From assembly GCA_045226015.1 (NCBI GenBank), contig JBGVBY010000004.1, positions 20,329-84,328 of the forward strand: a stretch of 64,000 bases of DNA. Reading direction: 5' to 3'. Of this stretch, positions 72 through 13,723 are shown piece after piece. Each line of letters opens with the position of its first letter. Position 1 is the first letter of the stretch. The notes under the pieces were generated by a model. It did not search any database, was not told the origin of the DNA, and worked only from the letters and a program-made list of their open reading frames with translations. A program made the translations under genes and the position numbers. This DNA comes from Bacilli bacterium. Its GTDB lineage: Bacteria > Bacillota_I > Bacilli_A > RFN20 > CAG-826.

Positions 72-2167
72 ATAGTTTTCAGTTCTCCTTTTATCGAATG
101 TTTTTTTGACAAGAAAATTGGAAGAAGTGTAGCGATAAACGAAACTAAGAAAACACCTAACAGAATCAAAATAGGGAATAAAAAACGAATTCCTAAGTAC
201 TGTGAGTAAGGAATAAGAATCAAATCTTTTACATCCAAGTTATTATAGATAAGAGAATTAATGATTTTAGAAAACAAGAGCGAGGTAAGAGAAGAAATGG
301 CAATCGCAAAAACACCATTAATGATGGATTCTCCTAAATATATTGAAGAGATGTCTTCATTTGACGCTCCTAAAGAGGAAAGAATCGCGCTGTTTTTTCT
401 ATCTTCAGAATAACTAGTAAAAGAGATGATGCTTAAGATAAGAATAGAACCGATAAAGCAGATTATTAAAAAGAGAATGACCCCATATTCAGCAACTTCT
501 AAAAAAATAAATAACGAATTAGCAACTAATAAGGATTGATTAGAGTAAACGAGGTTACCACCAACATTAATCCCATTAAACAATAGGTCCTTTTTGCTTA
601 TATCCTTCAAAAACAATGAATAAGAATAGGAAGATAAAATGGAATGATCATCTGAAGTAAGCACTCTATCATACCATGATATATCTATGCCTTTGTAGGT
701 TGATAGATTTAGTAAAAGTAGCTCTTTTAAATATTCGCTTAATTTACTATAACTATAATAAATTTTAGGAGTTGATAAATACCTTAAATCTTTTACTACT
801 CCCGATATTTTTAAAGTTCTACTTATTCTAAACACATCAATGACTTCTAACTGTAATTCATCCATGTAAGATGTGATTAGTTCGTTCTTTATGGTTATAG
901 TCTCTCCAATTGGATTTCTATTTAAATCAGTAAGAAGATGGCTATATGCTTCTTCATTAATAAAAACCTCATCGAAATTATCTATTTCTGGCAATGAAGC
1001 ATATACTATTTGAGAGGCATCTACGTATCTAGCATTTAGAGAATATACAGGCGTGAAATTATAGTTATACAAAGATGTGTCTTTATATGAAATTTGAATA
1101 TTTGAAGGGATAATTGCCGAAAAATTAGGACAAATATGGAAATTTTCAGTCAAAAAGCTAATATCTTCAAGCTTGCTCAATTTAGGTCTACTACTCTTAG
1201 ATAAAGATAACAAACCGCTGCCAGATGTTTTCACTTCTTCTGATATTGTTCCAGAGCCAAATGCAAATTGCTTAGATGTTGCATCTTTAAGCGCTTTTGT
1301 CTTGTTATCACTAAACCCTAAAACCAGATATAGCAATGTTAAACTAATACTAAAAGCAAGCACACAAAAAATATTTCTTTTTATATGCTTTCGATAATTC
1401 GATAGAAGAAAAATATTGGTCCAAATAGATGATCTTTTTGTCTTTATTTCCTCAACTACTTTATTATTGCTTTCTTTGTTTTTAATGTAAGAGTCGCTTA
1501 CAACCTTACCGTCAGATAATTCAATAATTCTGTCCGAGTATGGTTTTGTTAGTTGTAGGTTGTGAGAAACTAGTATCACTAATCTACTTTTACTTATTTC
1601 TTTTAAGTATTCAATTACTGTTTTGGAATTAGAAGAATCTAAAGCACCAGTTGGCTCATCACAAAAAATTATTTTTGGATTATTTATTAACGCTCTAGCA
1701 ATACATACCCTCTGAGTTTCTCCTCCAGACAGATATTTAGCCTTCACGTTCCATAATTCTTCACTTATGTTGAATCTTTTTAATAACTCTTTAGCGGCTT
1801 TTACCGCCTTTTTTCTTTTTACTCCACTTATTAAAGCAGGGACTATAACATTTTGAATAACGTTAAGATTTGAAAACAAATGATATTCCTGATAAATGAT
1901 ACCTATACTTTTATTTCTGAATTTATTCTCTTTGTTTCCTCTAATTGAACTATAGCTCTTGTTGTTATAATACAAATCACCACTACTAGGCTTATCTAGT
2001 TTTGATAGAAGATTGATCAATGTCGACTTTCCACTTCCAGAATGGCCAGAGATAAGCACTAAACCTCTGTCATCAAAGGATAGATTTGTGGACTTCAAAG
2101 CGTAAAACTCTTGAGTTTTGTTGATCTGATATTTTTTAGAAATGTCTTTGGCAATTAATAGTTTCAT
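68..2167 (-). CDS. MacB/FtsX-like fused ABC ATPase-permease
   Basis: Walker A GHSGSGKS, signature LSGGETQR, Walker B IFCDEPTG, H-loop VSH; one TM helix, a large extracellular loop, then an FtsX-type C-terminal TM bundle. Confidence 0.9.
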   Translation of the reverse strand: MKLLIAKDISKKYQINKTQEFYALKSTNLSFDDRGLVLISGHSGSGKSTLINLLSKLDKPSSGDLYYNNKSYSSIRGNKENKFRNKSIGIIYQEYHLFSNLNVIQNVIVPALISGVKRKKAVKAAKELLKRFNISEELWNVKAKYLSGGETQRVCIARALINNPKIIFCDEPTGALDSSNSKTVIEYLKEISKSRLVILVSHNLQLTKPYSDRIIELSDGKVVSDSYIKNKESNNKVVEEIKTKRSSIWTNIFLLSNYRKHIKRNIFCVLAFSISLTLLYLVLGFSDNKTKALKDATSKQFAFGSGTISEEVKTSGSGLLSLSKSSRPKLSKLEDISFLTENFHICPNFSAIIPSNIQISYKDTSLYNYNFTPVYSLNARYVDASQIVYASLPEIDNFDEVFINEEAYSHLLTDLNRNPIGETITIKNELITSYMDELQLEVIDVFRISRTLKISGVVKDLRYLSTPKIYYSYSKLSEYLKELLLLNLSTYKGIDISWYDRVLTSDDHSILSSYSYSLFLKDISKKDLLFNGINVGGNLVYSNQSLLVANSLFIFLEVAEYGVILFLIICFIGSILILSIISFTSYSEDRKNSAILSSLGASNEDISSIYLGESIINGVFAIAISSLTSLLFSKIINSLIYNNLDVKDLILIPYSQYLGIRFLFPILILLGVFLVSFIATLLPIFLSKKHSIKGELKTI

Positions 2168-2175
2168 AGAAAAAC

Positions 2176-2214
2176 CCCCTCATTATTTAAATAGGGGGAT
2201 TTTTCAATTTTTTT
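2176..2214 (-). promoter_or_regulatory. Shared 39-bp motif, copy 1 (candidate alternative-sigma promoter or operator); also folds as a CCCCCT/AGGGGG hairpin plus T-run that could terminate fhs
   Basis: AAAAAAATTGAAAAATCCCCCTATTTAAATAATGAGGGG aligns without gaps to the copies at 10068-10106 and 12026-12064. Confidence 0.65.
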
Positions 2215-2225
2215 AAAAATTTTCT

Positions 2226-3830
2226 TTAATTATTTTCCATTTTGACTGCGGCAGGTACTTTTGGAAGGCCTGGCATAGTCATAATTGAACCAGTAAGAGG
2301 AACAATGAATCCCGCTCCACTAGATAGTCTAACTTCTCTAATTGTGATGTCAAAATCATCAGGTGCGCCTTGAATCTTTGCGTTATCTGTAAATGATAAT
2401 GGAGTCTTAGCAATACAAATAGGAGTCTTGTCGTACCCAATCTTTGTAAATGCTTCAATTTGTTCTAAAGCTTTATCGGTGTAAACAACATTTTTCGCTC
2501 TATAGATTTCTTTACAAATCTTTTCAATTTTAGCTTTGATTGGTTCATTAACATCATATAAAGGATGGTATTTACTTTCCTCTTTATCTAATGTTTCAAG
2601 CACTAAGTTTGCTAAAGCAACACCACCTTCTGCGCCTTTAGAGAAGGAATCGCAGAAAGCATATTTGTAATTTTGTTTTTTGCATAGCTCTTTAAGAGTT
2701 TCGGTTTCTTTTTCTGTATCGCTTTCAAAGTGATTGATACATACAACAGCAGGAACTCCATATTTAGCAATATTTTCCATATGTCTTTGAAGATTCTTAA
2801 AGCCAATAGTTAAAGCTTCAATATTTTCTTTTTCTAAATCATCATAAGATGACCCACCGTGGAGTTTGAGTGCTCTAATAGTAGCAACCATAACAACAGC
2901 GTTAGGAGTTAATCCTCCAACACGACATTTTATATCTAAGAACTTTTCTGCGCCTAAATCAGCACCAAAACCTGCCTCTGTAACAACAATTGGGGCAAGT
3001 TTAAGTGCCATCTTTGTGGCCATAATGGAATTACATCCATGAGCGATATTAGCAAATGGTCCTCCATGAATTAAGCATGGATTATCTTCTAGTGTTTGTA
3101 CAAGATTAGGATTAAACGCGTTTTTCATCAATTTATAAATAGCGTTATTGATATGTAACGAATCTAAATAAACAGGGTTACCATCTAAATCATAGGCCAC
3201 CATGATGTTTTTAATACGTTTAATAAAATCATCAGGATCTTTGGCTAAGCACAAGATCGCCATAAGTTCACTGGCAACCGTAATCACAAATTCATCATGA
3301 CGTGGTTCACTTTTCTTTTCATCTTGATTAACAGTGACAGATCTTAACGCTCTATCATTCATATCAAGAGCGCGTTTCCATAAGATTCTACTTGGGTCAA
3401 TTCTTAATTCGTTGCCTTGGAAGATATGGTTATCAATAATTGCGGAGATTAAGTTAATTGAACTAGTCAAAGCATGCATATCACCAGTAAAGTGAAGATT
3501 TATATCTTCAGATGGGATAACACTAGCCTTTCCTCCGCCTGTTGCCCCACCTTTTAGTCCAAAGACAGGACCTAAAGAAGGTTCTCTAAGACAGAGCAAG
3601 GAATTAACACCAACTTTTCTTAATCCGTCTTGAAGAGCAATAGATGTTGTTGTCTTTCCTTCTCCAGCTTTTGTAGGAGTAATAGCGGTAACTAAAACGA
3701 GTTTACCGTCTTTGTTATCTTTCAACTTTTCGTTAATCTTTAAATCAATTTTCGCTTTGTCATTACCATAAGGAATAACAAACTCCTTATCAATGTTTGC
3801 TTTTTTGGCAATTTCGAATATATCTAGCAT
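2226..3830 (-). CDS. fhs: Formate--tetrahydrofolate ligase
   Basis: TPTKAGEGKTT, GLKGGATGGG, HGGPFANIAHG and MTMPGLP motifs. Confidence 0.97.
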   Translation of the reverse strand: MLDIFEIAKKANIDKEFVIPYGNDKAKIDLKINEKLKDNKDGKLVLVTAITPTKAGEGKTTTSIALQDGLRKVGVNSLLCLREPSLGPVFGLKGGATGGGKASVIPSEDINLHFTGDMHALTSSINLISAIIDNHIFQGNELRIDPSRILWKRALDMNDRALRSVTVNQDEKKSEPRHDEFVITVASELMAILCLAKDPDDFIKRIKNIMVAYDLDGNPVYLDSLHINNAIYKLMKNAFNPNLVQTLEDNPCLIHGGPFANIAHGCNSIMATKMALKLAPIVVTEAGFGADLGAEKFLDIKCRVGGLTPNAVVMVATIRALKLHGGSSYDDLEKENIEALTIGFKNLQRHMENIAKYGVPAVVCINHFESDTEKETETLKELCKKQNYKYAFCDSFSKGAEGGVALANLVLETLDKEESKYHPLYDVNEPIKAKIEKICKEIYRAKNVVYTDKALEQIEAFTKIGYDKTPICIAKTPLSFTDNAKIQGAPDDFDITIREVRLSSGAGFIVPLTGSIMTMPGLPKVPAAVKMENN

Positions 3831-3834
3831 GGTT

Positions 3835-4707
3835 TTACTCCTTTATTGCATTTATTAATTCATCTATAGTTTTGTATTCTTCACTAACGAATTGGTTCTT
3901 GAAGAATGTTACCTGTCTTTTAGCGTAGTTTCTAGTCCTCTTTTGTATGGTACTTATTGCTTCTTGAATAGAGTAATTACTATGTAAGAACTCAATTATT
4001 TCTTTATATCCAATTCCCTGTTTAGCGGTTAATGATAGCTCATATTTATTAAGTAAATCTTTCACTTCTTCCACTAAACCTGAATCCACCATTTCTAGAA
4101 CTCTATCGTTAATATTTTGATATAACTCATCTCTATTTGGTGATAGATATAGAAGTCTAACATCTTTATATATCATTTCATGTTTTTGAGAATTGATACG
4201 TTCAGATTTACTGACACCACTATTACGAATCATAGATATCGCTCTTATAAGTCGTTTACGATTGTTGATATGAATCTTGCTAGCGCTCTCTTTATCTAAT
4301 GATAAAAGAGTTTGATACAATTCTTCATTAGTCAACTTTTCTAAGTCACTATTATCAACTTTATCTTCGATAGCAAACTCATAATCATATAACGTTGCTC
4401 TTAGATATAATCCCGTTCCACCGACAAGTATTACATCTTTATCTTTCTTCAGGCACTTATCTATCTCTTTTCTAGCGAGGTTTTGATATTCCATAACCGA
4501 GAATGTCTCGCTAGGAGAAACAATATCTAATAAATGATAACGTTTATAATGTGGATCCTTTTTATCGAGCTTAGAGGTTCCGATATCCATATCTTTATAG
4601 ATTTGAAATGCATCAAAATTAATCGCATCACAATTAAGGATGTCCATTAATTTATTAGTTGCAGTAGTTTTGCCACTGCAAGTTGGACCCATAATCACAT
4701 AAATCAT
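3835..4707 (-). CDS. miaA: tRNA dimethylallyltransferase
   Basis: GPTCSGKT, DAFQIYKDMDIGT, VGGTGLY, TRNYAKRQ. Start moved to ATG 4707. Confidence 0.95.
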   Translation of the reverse strand: MIYVIMGPTCSGKTTATNKLMDILNCDAINFDAFQIYKDMDIGTSKLDKKDPHYKRYHLLDIVSPSETFSVMEYQNLARKEIDKCLKKDKDVILVGGTGLYLRATLYDYEFAIEDKVDNSDLEKLTNEELYQTLLSLDKESASKIHINNRKRLIRAISMIRNSGVSKSERINSQKHEMIYKDVRLLYLSPNRDELYQNINDRVLEMVDSGLVEEVKDLLNKYELSLTAKQGIGYKEIIEFLHSNYSIQEAISTIQKRTRNYAKRQVTFFKNQFVSEEYKTIDELINAIKE

Positions 4708-9059: not shown

Positions 9060-10061
9060 TTATAACTTTTGATCTTTAATTTCCTTGATCTTCTTAAGGA
9101 GTTCTTCCTTAACATCTTCATTAGCTTTAATGTATTCTTTAGCGCTATCGCGGCCTTGAGCAATCTTGCTTCCGTTATATTCGAACCAAGCGCCACTCTT
9201 TTTGATGATACCAAGTTCAACAGCACGATCAAGAATCTCGGCTTCCTTAGAAATACCTTGGCCATAAATAATATCAATCTCGCATTGTTTAAATGGTGGG
9301 CTAACTTTGTTTTTAACAACCTTAATTCTACAAGTGTTACCAGTAACATCGCTTCCTGATTTAATGGCTTCGGTTCTACGAATATCAAGTCTAATAGAAG
9401 CATAGAATTTAAGCGCTCTACCACCACTTGTGGTTTCTGGATTACCGTACATAACACCAACCTTTTCTCTTAATTGGTTAATGAAGATAATCGCACATTC
9501 TTTTTTGTTAAGAATACCAGCAAGTTTTCTCATTGCTTTACTCATTAAGCGCGCTTGCATGCCAACAGAGTTATCGCCCATTTCACCATCAAGTTCAGCT
9601 TGAGGTACTAAAGCAGCGACGCTATCAACAATAAGAAGATCAATCGCGCCACTACTAACAAGCATCTCTGAAATCTCTAAAGCTTGTTCGCCGCTATCAG
9701 GTTGCGAAAGAATGAGTTCATCAATGTTAACTCCTAAATTCTTTGCGTAGATAGGATCAATCGCGTGCTCAGCGTCAATAAAAGCTGCACGTCCACCTTG
9801 TTTTTGACATTCTGCTATCGCGTGTAACGCAAGCGTAGTTTTACCACTACTCTCAGGGCCAAAAATTTCAATAATTCTTCCTCTAGGATATCCACCCACT
9901 CCAAGAGCTTCGTCTAAGAGAAGGGAACCGGAAGGAATTACAGAAACGTCTACAGCAGGTCTATCTCCTAAGACCATAACTGCACCTTTACCAAATGTTT
10001 TTTGGATTTCGTTTAGAACTGCGTCGAGTTCTTTTGAGTCAATTTGTTTTTTCTTTTCCAT
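9060..10061 (-). CDS. recA: Recombinase A
   Basis: [34 protein letters not shown]. Confidence 0.99.
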
Positions 10062-10067
10062 AAAAGT

Positions 10068-10106
10068 CTCCTCACTATTTAAATAGGAAGAAAATGCGAT
10101 TTTTTT
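10068..10106 (-). promoter_or_regulatory. Shared 39-bp motif, copy 2, fused to the recA ribosome-binding site
   Basis: AAAAAAATCGCATTTTCTTCCTATTTAAATAGTGAGGAG, 36/39 identical to 12026-12064. Confidence 0.7.
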
Positions 10107-10575
10107 AATTATTTTCTTGTAATTTTTTTTCTAAAATTTCACAAGCAATATTAATTGCTTGATTTTGTATACTTTTTCTATCCCCTTCAAGAAGATATGA
10201 AAATACTTGGCATTTATCATAGAAAGCAACGCCTATATAAACTTCTCCAACTTTCTTGTCTTCCATTGCAGTTGGACCAGCGTTTCCAGTAAAAGAAACA
10301 CAATAATCTACATTAAGAAGAACTTTAGCACGGCTCGCCATTTCTCCTGCAACTTCTTGAGATACAACTCCATATCTATCAATGATTGAATAAGGAATTC
10401 CTAATATGCGTGCCTTTTCTTCAGTCGCGTATGTAACTAATGAACCTTTAAAAAAATGAGAAGCACCGCTTATAGAAGTAATGGCGCTAGCAAAACTACC
10501 ACCAGTAAAAGATTCTACTGAACCAAGTGTTCTGCCTTTTTCTCTAAATAATCTATTAAGTTCTTCAACGGTCAT
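10105..10575 (-). CDS. cinA: CinA C-terminal domain protein (NMN deamidase, PncC-like)
   Basis: [37 protein letters not shown]; upstream of recA. Confidence 0.9.
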
Positions 10576-10576
10576 A

Positions 10577-11215
10577 TTATTTACTTTCTAAAAATGCTTT
10601 TCTATTTTGATAGACATAAATAACACCACTAATAAATGAAACTAATGTAGCGGCGTACACCAAGAATGATGTCACAGTTAAATATGGATATGGGTTATTT
10701 GGATACATATAGTGGAATGGGAAATCGTTAAGCAAAACACAAGCGATAGCAACCATTTGTAGGACAGTTTTTAACTTACCAAATATATTAGCGGCAATAA
10801 CCACTCCCTTTTGAGCAGCAATAAATCTTAAAGCGTCAACAACTGTATCTCTAGCAACCATAATAATGACGCACCAAATAGAAATATAGATAGTTTGTTC
10901 ATGAGCGTATAAAGAGGCTTCTCTACATGCTAAGAAGATAAGCATTGTGCTCACCAAAAGTTTATCTGCAACAGGATCTAAAAATTTCCCTAAATCAGTA
11001 ACTTGATTGTTTTTTCTAGCAAGCTTTCCATCTAAATGATCGGTGTAGCTAGCAATCACGAAAAACACGAAAATTACTAAAAATATCAAGTTTATGCGTG
11101 TATTTCCGAGAAGAGGAGTATTAAGTTCTGGATAAAACGAAAGAACAAATAGTGTGATAATCAACATCACAGTAGCAATGATTCTAGCGAATGTAATTTT
11201 TGTTGGAAGATTCAT
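10577..11215 (-). CDS. pgsA: CDP-diacylglycerol--glycerol-3-phosphate 3-phosphatidyltransferase
   Basis: DHLDGKLARKNNQVTDLGKFLDPVADK CDP-alcohol phosphotransferase motif. Confidence 0.95.
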   Translation of the reverse strand: MNLPTKITFARIIATVMLIITLFVLSFYPELNTPLLGNTRINLIFLVIFVFFVIASYTDHLDGKLARKNNQVTDLGKFLDPVADKLLVSTMLIFLACREASLYAHEQTIYISIWCVIIMVARDTVVDALRFIAAQKGVVIAANIFGKLKTVLQMVAIACVLLNDFPFHYMYPNNPYPYLTVTSFLVYAATLVSFISGVIYVYQNRKAFLESK

Positions 11216-11240
11216 AATTTCCTCTTTTCTTTTAGTGAGT

Positions 11241-11581
11241 CCTCGATCCTATAAGCCATGTTTTGTCTAGGATGATAATTTATCTAAGATTGCTCTTACT
11301 TGAATCGATTCAATTCTCTATCAAGTCTCCCCTACCAAATTTGGGTTTCTCACTTACGGGGTTTACCGCGTTCCACCTTATTCTTTCAAATAAGCTACGT
11401 CACTGTGGCACTTTCAGGAATTCTACCATGGATTGCTCTTTAGGTTAAATTCCGCCGTCACGTACTCCTACGTGCCTAGTGTTATTTTTTTCACTAGCGT
11501 AATCACTACAACCATCGCAGGCTGTATGAGCATGGACTTTCCTCTAACTAACTAGTAGTCAGCAATCATCCAGATCGAAGG
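11241..11581 (-). ncRNA. rnpB: RNase P RNA, bacterial type B
   Basis: Minus strand carries GAGGAAAGTCCATGC, AAAGTGCCACAG, GGTAAACCCC and ACAAAACATGGCTTAT; termini pair (P1); downstream of gpsB as in Bacilli. Confidence 0.95.
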
Positions 11582-11582
11582 T

Positions 11583-11939
11583 TTATTTAATTTCATCGGG
11601 ATTCATATTTAATTTTTCATAAATTATCTTCTCCAACTTCCCGATGCGTAGAAGAAGTTCGTAGTTATCAATATGGATGTTTTTATGGTCTTTGGAAATA
11701 TATTTCCATTTGTCCTTTTCGTTTTCTAATTCTGACCTAAGTTTAGCGTTCTCTTCTTTCAATGTTTTAACTTGTTCTAGTAAAGAGTTGTCAGAAATAG
11801 ACAAACTTTTTTCAAACGCTTCATAGTCACGAATAATCTTATCTAAATATTCATCAACCTCTAATGGGTTATATCCATTTACAGAAGTTGAGAACTTTTT
11901 ATTAAGTAATTCATCACTAGAGCAATTCAATTTATCCAT
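11583..11939 (-). CDS. gpsB: GpsB/DivIVA-domain protein
   Basis: KKFSTSVNGYNPLEVDEYLDKII N-terminal domain and NYELLLRIGKLEK C-terminal motif. Confidence 0.88.
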   Translation of the reverse strand: MDKLNCSSDELLNKKFSTSVNGYNPLEVDEYLDKIIRDYEAFEKSLSISDNSLLEQVKTLKEENAKLRSELENEKDKWKYISKDHKNIHIDNYELLLRIGKLEKIIYEKLNMNPDEIK

Positions 11940-12025
11940 ATCATTAATATTATGAATGAAAAAAGTTTATTTTTCATTAAAAAAATAAAAAAGTTTATAG
12001 ATATAAAAAAGTAAAATTTCTAACC

Positions 12026-12064
12026 AAAAAAATCGCGTTTTCTTCCTATTTAAATAATGAGGGG
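12026..12064 (+). promoter_or_regulatory. Shared 39-bp motif, copy 3
   Basis: AAAAAAATCGCGTTTTCTTCCTATTTAAATAATGAGGGG. Confidence 0.7.
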
Positions 12065-12195
12065 GCAAATATTGTTCCTTCTTCCAAAGGTCATGACTAG
12101 CAATCATGATTTGAGGAGTTTTCTTTGATAATTTCTTTTGTACTCAAGGCATGAATGCTAAGTCGTGTCTTTTGGAAAGTAGAGAGGAGGTGATG
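12059..12195 (+). ncRNA. Structured 5' leader of the small-peptide mRNA (two hairpins, then SD)
   Basis: 10-bp hairpin at 12059-12081. Long hairpin 12082-12115/12143-12177 with 31 pairs, three of them G-U that work only on the + strand. SD GAGGAGGTGA follows. Confidence 0.6.
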
Positions 12196-12201
12196 TAGAC
12201 A

Positions 12202-12273
12202 ATGGATTATCTAAGTCTAGTCTTAATCCTATTATGTATTTTCTTCTACATAATAAAAGATCACCGTAGATAG
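12202..12273 (+). CDS. 23-aa hydrophobic peptide MDYLSLVLILLCIFFYIIKDHRR, candidate type I toxin
   Basis: Near-perfect SD (GGAGGTGA at 12186-12193) 8 nt before the ATG; single hydrophobic helix with a charged C-terminus; too short for the ORF track. Confidence 0.65.
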   Translation: MDYLSLVLILLCIFFYIIKDHRR

Positions 12274-12280
12274 GTGACCT
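12252..12280 (-). terminator. Minus-strand intrinsic terminator overlapping the 3' end of the peptide ORF (candidate antitoxin 3' end)
   Basis: AGGTCACC-TATCTAC-GGTGATCT-TTTATT. The stem has a G-U pair on the minus strand but an A-C mismatch on the plus strand. Confidence 0.5.
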
Positions 12281-12408
12281 TACCTACTAATAAAGTAAAT
12301 TATCTGAGGATAGATTTCAATAGAAAGTTATTTTGACAATCAAAATTAAGTTAATACATATTATATATTCTTGAAAAGAAATACCTATGACTATAAACTA
12401 GTCATGAT

Positions 12409-13134
12409 ATGAAAAAAGTATTAAAAGCGTTTAAGGGTCATAAATATCTATGCTTCATGGATTTTGAAGGAACTCAATATTCTCATGAAATGATCGCCTA
12501 TGGAGCTGTGCTTGTAACCATTGATAAAAACGGCCACATTGTTAAAAGAAAACATCCTATAAAAAGATATGTTCGCGCTAAAAACGCAATTGGTAAATTT
12601 GTTGAAGGATTAACCGGCATTACTCAAACAGACTTAAATAAGTTTGGCATTACTTTTAGTGAAGGGATGAAAGAACTTAAGAAATATTGTGGATTAACAT
12701 TTAAAAAATGTTCATTCATCACTTTTGGAAATCATGACATGAGAATCTTGTCTCAATCAATGTCATATAACTTAGATAGCCCAAAAGAGTTGTGTGGAAT
12801 TATTAAAAGCAACTTTGTTGATTTCCAGGCCATTATCTCAGAATTCATAAAAGATGATAAAGGAAATGTCATGTCATTAGCGCACTACCTACAAACATTT
12901 GGAATCGAGTTTGATGGAGAGGCGCACGATCCAGAATATGACGCTATTAATCTAGCGAATTTATATGACGCTTTTATCACAAATAAAGAAGTTGTGCTAA
13001 ATGAATATCTTAAAAACCTTAAGAAATCTTCATTCCATCCAACTCCAATCGATAAAGTTGTTAAAAAATTACTTAATAACGAACCTATTACTCCTGAAGA
13101 ATTTATCACATATTTAAAAGACTATATTGCCTAA
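12409..13134 (+). CDS. DEDDh 3'-5' exonuclease (KapD/ERI-1-like)
   Basis: ExoI DFEGT, LTGITQ, ExoII FGNHD, ExoIII HDPEYDA. Confidence 0.8.
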   Translation: MKKVLKAFKGHKYLCFMDFEGTQYSHEMIAYGAVLVTIDKNGHIVKRKHPIKRYVRAKNAIGKFVEGLTGITQTDLNKFGITFSEGMKELKKYCGLTFKKCSFITFGNHDMRILSQSMSYNLDSPKELCGIIKSNFVDFQAIISEFIKDDKGNVMSLAHYLQTFGIEFDGEAHDPEYDAINLANLYDAFITNKEVVLNEYLKNLKKSSFHPTPIDKVVKKLLNNEPITPEEFITYLKDYIA

Positions 13135-13135
13135 G

Positions 13136-13723
13136 ATGAAATATCCAAACGGACAAGAATATAAACCAAATACATGTAGGAAGTCTCATAAAAGCAAAGC
13201 TGAGATATCTTTAAGTTCCGCTAATAGAGGGATGAATCTTGAAAGCGAAATTAACCTTTCAAACGCATATTACAAAGATAAAGATATTTGTCTAATTACC
13301 AAGAGACCAACTCCTATCAATATTGTTAAAGTTGATTATTCAAAAGGTGCTAAAATCACTCATGCATACTTCGAAGAACAATCCACTACCGACTATAACG
13401 GAGTGTACCGTTCTCGTTATATCGATTTTGAAGCAAAAAACACAAAGAACAAAACTTCCTTCCCATTAAGTAATATCACTCCAAATCAAATTGATCACTT
13501 AAAGAGAGTTATAGCGCACGGAGGAATCGCCTTTTTCATCGTAAGTTTTGAAAGTTTGAATAAGGTTTATTTGTTAGACGCTCAATATGTTATCGATTTT
13601 TATGAAAATGGGGAAAGAAAATCCATTCCAGTAGATTGCTTTAATGAAAATGGAATAGAAATAAAACAAGGGTTCAATCCTCGTTTAGATTATATAGACG
13701 CTGTTAATAAGAAATATTTCTAA
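13136..13723 (+). CDS. recU: Holliday junction resolvase RecU
   Basis: NRGMNLE, KRPTP, STTDYNGVY, DFEAKNT. Confidence 0.95.
   Translation: MKYPNGQEYKPNTCRKSHKSKAEISLSSANRGMNLESEINLSNAYYKDKDICLITKRPTPINIVKVDYSKGAKITHAYFEEQSTTDYNGVYRSRYIDFEAKNTKNKTSFPLSNITPNQIDHLKRVIAHGGIAFFIVSFESLNKVYLLDAQYVIDFYENGERKSIPVDCFNENGIEIKQGFNPRLDYIDAVNKKYF

Follow-up and report, generated by a model that had tools for sequence, protein, structure and literature searches.

Does the short gap between gpsB and a putative exonuclease gene in the genome of an uncultured rumen Bacilli bacterium hold a type I toxin-antitoxin-like locus, and, if so, to which regulon does it belong? We addressed this question in a stretch of 64,000 nucleotides (here referred to as the window) on contig 4 of a 1.17-Mb genome that comprises 22 contigs and is 95% complete. 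On the minus strand, the gap is flanked by recA (9060-10061), a CinA-domain gene identified with Pfam (10105-10575), an ORF of 212 residues that is pgsA-like by eye only (10577-11215), a class B RNase P RNA (11247-11577; 271 bits), and gpsB (11583-11939), whose NCBIfam match of 67 bits is below the cut-off of 91. On the plus strand follow a gene with a weak match to KapD-like exonucleases (12409-13134; 36.5 bits against a cut-off of 169) and recU (13127-13723). The GpsB and weak KapD-like matches agree with the flanks named in the original prediction, which had also placed the locus in a core-genome position free of mobile genes; indeed, the neighbors are housekeeping genes, and transposase or phage genes are absent within 3.5 kb.

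The gap contains an ORF at 12202-12273 of the plus strand, with an ATG start and a TAG stop, that encodes a 23-residue apolar peptide (MDYLSLVLILLCIFFYIIKDHRR), the candidate toxin. A strong Shine-Dalgarno (SD) sequence (GGAGGTGAT, 12186-12194) lies 7 nt before the ATG, so that both elements are present as claimed. The peptide had been described as hydrophobic with a charged tail; 16 of its 23 residues are apolar, and the pattern of its family is an apolar stretch followed by IK and a polar tail. It matches none of the catalogued toxin models in Pfam and NCBIfam (Fst/Ldr, Hok, TisB, TxpA/BsrG, and others). NCBIfam yielded no family for any of six peptides at an E value of ≤10, Pfam gave sub-threshold chance matches alone (DUF6728 at 14.4 bits against a cut-off of 27, and TMD0_ABC), and the best result of a PDB profile search with the peptide was a rhomboid membrane segment (E = 2.5), with no family.

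The locus had been taken for a single one; instead, the genome holds nine paralogous modules. Searching the genome with the gap by blastn gave many partial matches, which alignment resolved into two nested things, a full module and a shorter box. A module profile (nhmmer) identified nine copies, with E values from 1.8e-70 to 1.2e-10. Besides the window copy, contigs 7 and 10 carry two copies each, contigs 8 and 14 a single copy each, and contig 21 a tandem pair. Where blastn aligns them, the copies are 69-88% identical to the window copy, and their neighbors, named by eye, include metK-like, aldolase-like, ktr-like, and ribosomal protein genes. The copies have an AGGAGG-type SD and an apolar ORF of 19-25 residues ending in I-K-K or I-K-D plus a few polar residues; their 3′ part comprises an A-run, a hairpin at the stop codon, and the conserved motif ATAAAGTAAA or a variant of it.

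Among 40 relatives, blastn with the gap found the box alone and no module. A profile made from the nine peptides, run in six frames, led on inspection to complete modules in relatives. A larger profile of 25 peptides detected the family, at E ≤ 0.001, in 15 of the genus's 22 other species, most of which have one to five copies; five of these species (G003, G012, G013, G015, and G017) had contributed no peptide to the profile. Matches in a sample of the order came from 6 of 201 genomes, in 2 of 51 genera; the 24-position apolar profile is a weak probe, and the counts apply to the genomes searched. We collected 43 modules, nine from the genome itself, 33 from the rest of the genus, and one from another genus (G099, in which a second tandem copy was seen later and is outside the 43). 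All 43 encode an apolar peptide of 19-28 residues that ends in I-K plus a polar tail; across paralogues and kin, such counts are non-independent. In an alignment of 25 peptides, the common pattern is M-xx-(apolar x8)-LCxLVY-x-IK followed by a polar tail, and the I and K never vary; peptides of relatives include MSEIIFVLILLCYLAYIIKDQSR, MNDFIIVLALLCYLVYIIKKH, and METLLILFLLCLLASIIKGPNPKG. Conservation of the ORF and SD in relatives had been proposed as a check, and both are kept in 42 of 43 modules despite diverged DNA: an ATG, an SD core (GGAG, GAGG, or AAGG, 4-17 nt before the ATG), and an open frame of 19-28 codons. The exception, G003b, is a tandem partial copy in which no ATG start was found.

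A motif shared with recA was central to the original prediction, and it is real: positions 12026-12062 are 95% identical to 10070-10106 of the minus strand. The motif is part of the box, a putative promoter/5′-untranslated-region cassette of about 60 nt, which precedes the module at 12004-12065 (plus strand; 53.4 bits with nhmmer), recA at 10067-10125, between the CinA-domain gene and recA (minus strand; 42.6 bits), and a gene for a fused ABC ATPase/FtsX-type permease (68-2167; Pfam ABC_tran and FtsX) at 2175-2236 (minus strand; 44.3 bits). It is made up of blocks: an A-run that ends in ATCG, an arm rich in C, an AT-rich 11-mer, and an SD-like GAGGGGG. The box profile finds 18 sites in the genome, scoring 24.5-56.8 bits, with the next best at 13.4 bits and noise below. 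Eight of the 18 head toxin modules; the tandem modules of contig 21 (L015, 8300-9100) carry a box on the first copy and none on the second. Besides recA, and with downstream genes named through Pfam, the box heads dprA-topA-xerC-like, comEA-comEC-holA, a pilus-type operon with an MG284/MPN403-family protein first and a T2SSE ATPase inside, a gene for a 59-residue peptide followed by radC, rpsF-ssb-rpsR, a thioredoxin-like gene followed by pcrA-ligA, a Peptidase_C39 protein gene, and a region with a DEAD-box helicase 2 kb downstream. We take the first six of these units (those with recA, dprA, comEA, the pilus-type genes, radC, and ssb) to represent hallmark competence genes of streptococci and Bacillus. 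As is characteristic of a competence regulon, one motif stands before DNA-uptake and recombination genes alike.

The same association recurs in relatives, where the box precedes recA in 4/4 cases found, dprA in 10/10, and comEA in 3/3 found, and where the species-specific spelling of the box is the same before the toxin modules and before recA, dprA, and comEA of that species. Of 36 regions upstream of toxin modules, a profile built from 22 competence-gene boxes alone recovered 24 at E ≤ 0.001 and, with the limit relaxed to E < 0.05, 31, the other five modules being without a box by this profile; the window box scores E = 1.8e-14. In G099, two tandem modules are located directly upstream of dprA, and all three units carry near-identical boxes. 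From these distribution patterns, we conclude that the toxin modules and the competence-type regulon probably have a common regulator.

Upstream of the ORF lies a structured leader, estimated at about 140 nt in the original prediction and spanning 146 nt from 12056 to the ATG. The region 12040-12300 folds at −83 kcal/mol, compared with −53.8 ± 4.6 kcal/mol for 200 dinucleotide shuffles, none of which was as good (z = −6.31), and an RNAalifold consensus of eight copies has 28 pairs, 10 of them compensated by changes on both sides. A 5′ hairpin (12059-12081, plus strand) pairs the SD-like GAGGGGGCA of the box with a CU-rich candidate anti-SD, TGTTCCTTC; it corresponds to RNAalifold columns 4-12 with 36-44, with double changes at columns 8, 10, and 11. 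Next comes a long leader hairpin (12082-12177, plus strand) with an outer stem (12082-12098 with 12161-12177), an inner stem (12112-12115 with 12143-12146), and a CU-rich apical loop that is more conserved than the stems. In the fold of 12040-12300, a further hairpin lies within the ORF (12230-12255, plus strand; TATTATGTA, an 8-nt loop, and TACATAATA) and survives two paired changes in the nearest paralogue. The predicted probability that the SD of the ORF is unpaired has a median of 0.21, compared with 0.35 in shuffles, and is the lower of the two in 24 of the 30 modules with a placeable box, with a predicted pairing partner that differs between modules (the apical loop or the early ORF). 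The competence-gene boxes hint at a similar arrangement: at least four of six SD bases pair in 9 of the 11 that were located among the 22 (median z = −1.9), which is suggestive of a predicted SD-burying hairpin in the third block of the box.

No Rfam family matches this structure. An Rfam E-value scan of 10500-13500 returned RNase P and sub-threshold matches alone (e.g., mir-5470 at 26 bits against a gathering threshold of 98), and a scan of 17 module loci at the gathering threshold returned one tRNA and no antitoxin or toxin-leader family. A covariance model of the leader (R1), built from seven copies, scored the seven closest copies in the genome at 99-144 bits, missed both copies on contig 21, and found no real copy outside the host genome among 23 genomes of the genus; the leader therefore evolves fast. 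Two weak R1 matches in relatives are inside coding sequence and hence false.

One feature of this RNA probably links its two ends. Loop element X (GATAATTT-CTTT, 12127-12138, plus strand) is complementary to tail element X′ (AAAG-T-AAATTATC, 12292-12304, plus strand), 19-31 nt behind the stop codon. Across 36 modules, 79.9% of X/X′ cells pair, compared with 33-48% when the partner is slid; there are 44 double-change cells versus 10-21, the covariation score is 0.279 versus 0.04-0.11, and none of 500 shuffles reaches the observed value. The count excludes seven modules: five whose leaders are truncated at a contig end, one that is identical to another row, and G003b. The two elements change together by subfamily, as in GTGGTTT/AAACCAC, GTGGCTT/AAGTCAC, ATCAGTT/AACTGAT, and CCTAGTT/AACTAGG. 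We read this covariation as a probable pairing between distant parts of the toxin mRNA.

The 3′ end of the module also carries what appears to be a convergent antisense unit. The stop-codon hairpin (12257-12281) was identified in a terminator scan; because a U-rich run (12247-12256) follows it on that strand, with none on the plus strand, it reads as the terminator of an antisense RNA. All 43 modules have a minus-strand hairpin of −6.7 to −17.3 kcal/mol with a T-run, despite very different stem sequences. Facing it is a minus-strand promoter pattern (12292-12320) with a −35 element TTGAAA (12320..12315), a 17-nt spacer, and a −10 element TACTTT (12297..12292). The pattern TTGNNN-N16-18-TANNNT occurs on the minus strand in 34 of 43 modules, compared with 401 of 5,000 random 85-nt windows of the genome (8%), and in the other nine modules these hexamers can be discerned by eye, either spaced by 19 nt or with a −10 element that lacks its last T. 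The minus-strand −10 element overlaps X′, and one constraint could therefore mimic the other; the −35 element alone is independent. Placing its ends by this promoter and terminator, we predict an antisense (antitoxin) RNA of about 37 nt (12248-12285, minus strand), little more than the complement of the stop-codon hairpin and, to our knowledge, shorter than any known antitoxin RNA. Among the sequencing runs listed as containing the sequence, none is recorded as RNA. In run X2, labelled metatranscriptomic, no contig covers 12008-12511, which is uninformative either way for a repeated 300-nt element; the depth over the RNase P RNA (11247-11577) is 1,000-4,000, compared with 9-37 in neighboring genes, and suggests that the run is really RNA.

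How does this arrangement compare with known systems? The Gram-positive type I layout, as outlined in T1TAdb (PMC8594479), combines a toxin of 20-60 residues, an mRNA of 150-400 nt, and a 3′-side antisense RNA that overlaps the ORF. The 23-residue apolar peptide falls within the type I size range (20-60 residues, hydrophobic, short mRNA), with a predicted mRNA of about 250-300 nt whose ends are inferred. Like Fst/RNAII (the par system of Enterococcus pAD1), TxpA/RatA, BsrG/SR4, and SprG/SprF, as these are outlined in the same source (PMC8594479), the module pairs a small apolar toxin candidate with a putative convergent 3′ antisense unit overlapping the end of the ORF. Unlike them, its predicted antisense RNA has only about 37 nt and shows, by eye, no par-like 5′ repeats complementary to the translation start, its toxin promoter would be the regulon box, and it matches no Pfam, NCBIfam, or Rfam family. 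In par, the two RNAs first touch at the terminator stem-loop that they share, and the layout of the module appears closest to par among the Gram-positive type I systems.

The loop-tail pairing brings to mind other systems. In the fold-back inhibition of hok/sok and the 5′-3′ lock of AapA/IsoA, a 3′ element pairs with the 5′ part and would keep the full-length mRNA inert. The module resembles these locks, as far as they are treated in PMC6733600, in that a 3′ element of its putative toxin mRNA pairs with the 5′ part. It differs in that the partner of the tail is the apical loop of a 5′ hairpin, which gives a pseudoknot-like geometry, and in its Gram-positive-type host, its lack of Hok homology, and a predicted antisense RNA at the 3′ rather than the 5′ end. 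Since none of the protein and RNA models that we tested was matched, the module is a member of none of par, hok, and tisB. The peptide, the loop-tail pairing, and the antisense signals are kept across 16 species, and we consider it rather likely that window positions 12004-12320 belong, as one copy, to a family of type I toxin-antitoxin-like modules that has not been described before. The original type I reading had cited the short apolar ORF, the SD, and the structured leader, which stand, and had not seen the convergent minus-strand promoter and terminator that now join them; the growth-arrest role that it proposed stays a prediction from sequence.

The modules could instead encode a small membrane protein that does no harm and belongs to the competence-type regulon, for example, as an accessory or regulatory subunit of the uptake machinery; RNA structure and a cis-antisense RNA would control it tightly, yet it would be no toxin. 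The evidence on expression and co-regulation fits such a protein equally well, toxicity itself being a prediction. We nonetheless regard this alternative as unlikely, given nine diverged paralogues in a 1.17-Mb genome, the predicted occlusion of the SD, and a putative dedicated, convergent antisense unit in 43 of 43 modules, a combination that constitutes the type I toxin signature in the descriptions of T1TAdb (PMC8594479). An accessory subunit, moreover, would not be expected in one to nine fast-evolving copies.

The very strong RNA structure and its covariation could also point to a noncoding structured RNA, or to a cis-regulatory leader of the downstream exonuclease-recU genes, with an incidental ORF. 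We saw no plus-strand terminator between the module and those genes (12305-12408, that is, before 12409), and the downstream gene has the same direction as the module in three of eight places in the genome; however, it is convergent in four of the eight, the eighth being at a contig end, and no Rfam family was matched. The ORF itself argues further against this reading, with its ATG, SD core, and open frame kept in 42 of 43 modules (the exception again being G003b) and with length differences among the 25 aligned peptides, at the N terminus, that are whole codons. In 13 close pairs, differences at codon positions 1, 2, and 3 number 26, 31, and 54, so that third positions are enriched (54/111), and the changed codons include 42 synonymous and 46 nonsynonymous ones. 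This skew suggests a coding signal of moderate strength, and the RNA hairpins inside the ORF could account for part of the peptide conservation. Overall, we find an incidental ORF improbable.

A selfish repeat of the miniature inverted-repeat transposable element (MITE) type, carrying a promoter by chance and serving no host function, would explain the multicopy, intergenic occurrence of the modules, and the box cassette does look copied from gene starts, with an SD-like GAGG and then a short upstream ORF (uORF). Against it, the copies are 69-88% identical rather than near-identical, no terminal repeats are noticeable by eye, no transposase is nearby, and the peptide, pairing, and antisense signals are kept across the 16 species, all of which make this explanation very improbable.

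Links between type I toxins and the SOS response are established, and the membrane peptide toxin of TisB/IstR-1 in Escherichia coli belongs to a DNA-transaction regulon together with recA. An SOS (LexA)-controlled analogue of tisB, as originally proposed, scarcely deserves credence here in spite of the motif common to recA and the module, because that motif also precedes dprA, comEA-comEC, radC, and the pilus-type operon, because the best match to the LexA DNA-binding domain (LexA_DNA_bind) reaches 14.4 bits against a cut-off of 23.7 in a genome whose 95% completeness leaves room for a missed gene, and because no Pfam or NCBIfam family, TisB included, was matched. The module differs from TisB/IstR-1 further in its predicted antisense RNA, which is 3′-convergent rather than divergent and upstream, and it shares no sequence similarity with it. 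The proposed co-regulation with recA accordingly keeps its basis, a common box, and loses its SOS part, and the tisB analogy holds as logic alone, that of a toxin wired into a DNA-transaction regulon. Given the competence-type genes that carry the box and the lack of LexA at the cut-off, the peptide looks co-regulated with a competence-type regulon rather than with SOS.

Which factor might read the box, which may be a sigma promoter, an activator site, or an RNA element? The sigma factors that we found are sigma-A, a 174-residue Sigma70_r2 protein, and a weak third candidate beside a transposase. The gene for the 174-residue protein, assigned only at the superfamily level, is flanked by a SpoU methylase gene on one side and an ABC gene on the other, and cysS adjoins this group; sigH occupies this position in Bacillus. 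Dedicated motifs before recA and DNA-uptake or recombination genes are also seen in the streptococcal SigX (ComX) box, given as TACGAATA in PMC6328492, and in the promoter TTGTCA-N18/19-ATTWAT of the sigma-20 (MG428) recombination regulon of Mycoplasma genitalium (PMC4446450). A further point of likeness is the MG284/MPN403-family protein encoded by the first gene of the boxed pilus-type operon. The middle block of our box, which reads ATCGAAAA, TTCGAAAA, or TTCGAATT depending on the species, resembles the SigX box in part; neither the SigX nor the sigma-20 consensus is matched in full, and, unlike those promoters, the box is longer, with three blocks that include an SD. As for the readings that we rejected, no hexamer pair at a spacing of 16-18 nt fits the conserved blocks by eye, as a sigma-A promoter would require, and the box does not have the consensus of an M. 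genitalium sigma-20 promoter.

Toxins under a competence regulator have been described for ToxTA of Haemophilus influenzae, a type II system, and for hokD of E. coli, which is induced by Sxy (PMC11951105 and PMC6957337). In the portion of a 2025 review that we consulted (PMC11951105), competence-linked toxin-antitoxin systems are type II systems plus one hok copy (hokD), in Proteobacteria only. Unlike these systems, type II or a single hok and under CRP-Sxy control, the modules described here would form a type I-like battery in a reduced Bacillota genome, under a box that also precedes recA, dprA, and comEA. The literature that we searched contained no type I toxin in the SigX or sigma-20 regulons or tied to ComX, competence, or antisense RNA.

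We propose the following working model. Expression would start at the plus-strand box, which is shared with DNA-uptake and recombination genes and which may be a promoter read by an alternative sigma factor or an activator, driving a transcript of roughly 250-300 nt by its presumed ends. This transcript would comprise the long 5′ hairpin, the mostly paired SD, the ORF for the 23-residue membrane peptide, the stop-codon hairpin, and the tail, and pairing of the tail with the apical loop would probably lock it in a compact, poorly translated form. From the minus-strand promoter behind the module would come the RNA of about 37 nt, an exact complement of the stop-codon hairpin, which would probably meet that hairpin by loop-loop contact and form a duplex that spans the stop and the seven codons before it. 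If Gram-positive type I systems are a guide, the duplex might lead to cleavage or 3′ decay, or block the completion of translation. When the competence-type regulon fires, the toxin mRNA would outrun the antisense RNA, and the peptide might enter the membrane and cause growth arrest or lysis during DNA uptake. Taken as a whole, we advance only tentatively, as a possibility, that these uncultured rumen Bacilli embed a type I toxin battery in a natural-transformation programme, through a box common to recA, dprA, and comEA-comEC, with a pseudoknot lock and an antitoxin RNA of about 37 nt, and with either arrest and depolarization or kin-feeding lysis as the outcome.

If this model is true, membrane toxins would be tied to natural transformation in Gram-positive-type bacteria by a type I-like family with a competence box, and there would be a testable way for competent cells to halt their growth or come by donor DNA. 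For an uncultured rumen lineage, sequence by itself defines a candidate competence regulon together with its promoter box, and the module would be a compact RNA system, made up of a 5′ hairpin loop, a 3′ tail, and a minimal antisense hairpin, with natural covariation data.

Several further observations concern the surroundings of the modules and the other boxed genes. In the tandem pair on contig 21, the minus-strand promoter region of the first module abuts the leader of the second. A short uORF (12072-12128, plus strand) lies right behind the SD-like GAGG of the box, with 18 codons from a TTG in the window copy; it starts with ATG or TTG in three close paralogues, is a start-stop pair in two others, and has five codons in G099, and its sequence after the box is not conserved among copies. 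It may be left over from the copying of a gene start or may serve for coupling, as mok does in hok/sok. Downstream of the module, read-through from the box could bring the exonuclease gene and recU into the same regulon, and a sigma-A-like TTGACA-N18-CATATT begins at 12333.

The boxed pilus-type operon (contig 6, L017, 78-4420, minus strand) encodes the MG284/MPN403 protein, two unknown proteins, a VirB11/TadA-like ATPase, two membrane proteins, and a small pilin-like protein, and is a candidate for a transformation pilus that is not of the ComG type. The boxed 59-residue peptide (contig 13, L018, 259-438, plus strand) has one membrane helix and no family match, and its gene directly precedes radC. 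Finally, a 268-nt contig from another study (run X3, record 24) carries the module, corresponding to window positions 12045-12311, with 21 differences and four gaps; it shows the pattern of a contig 7 paralogue, and the family therefore occurs in other samples.
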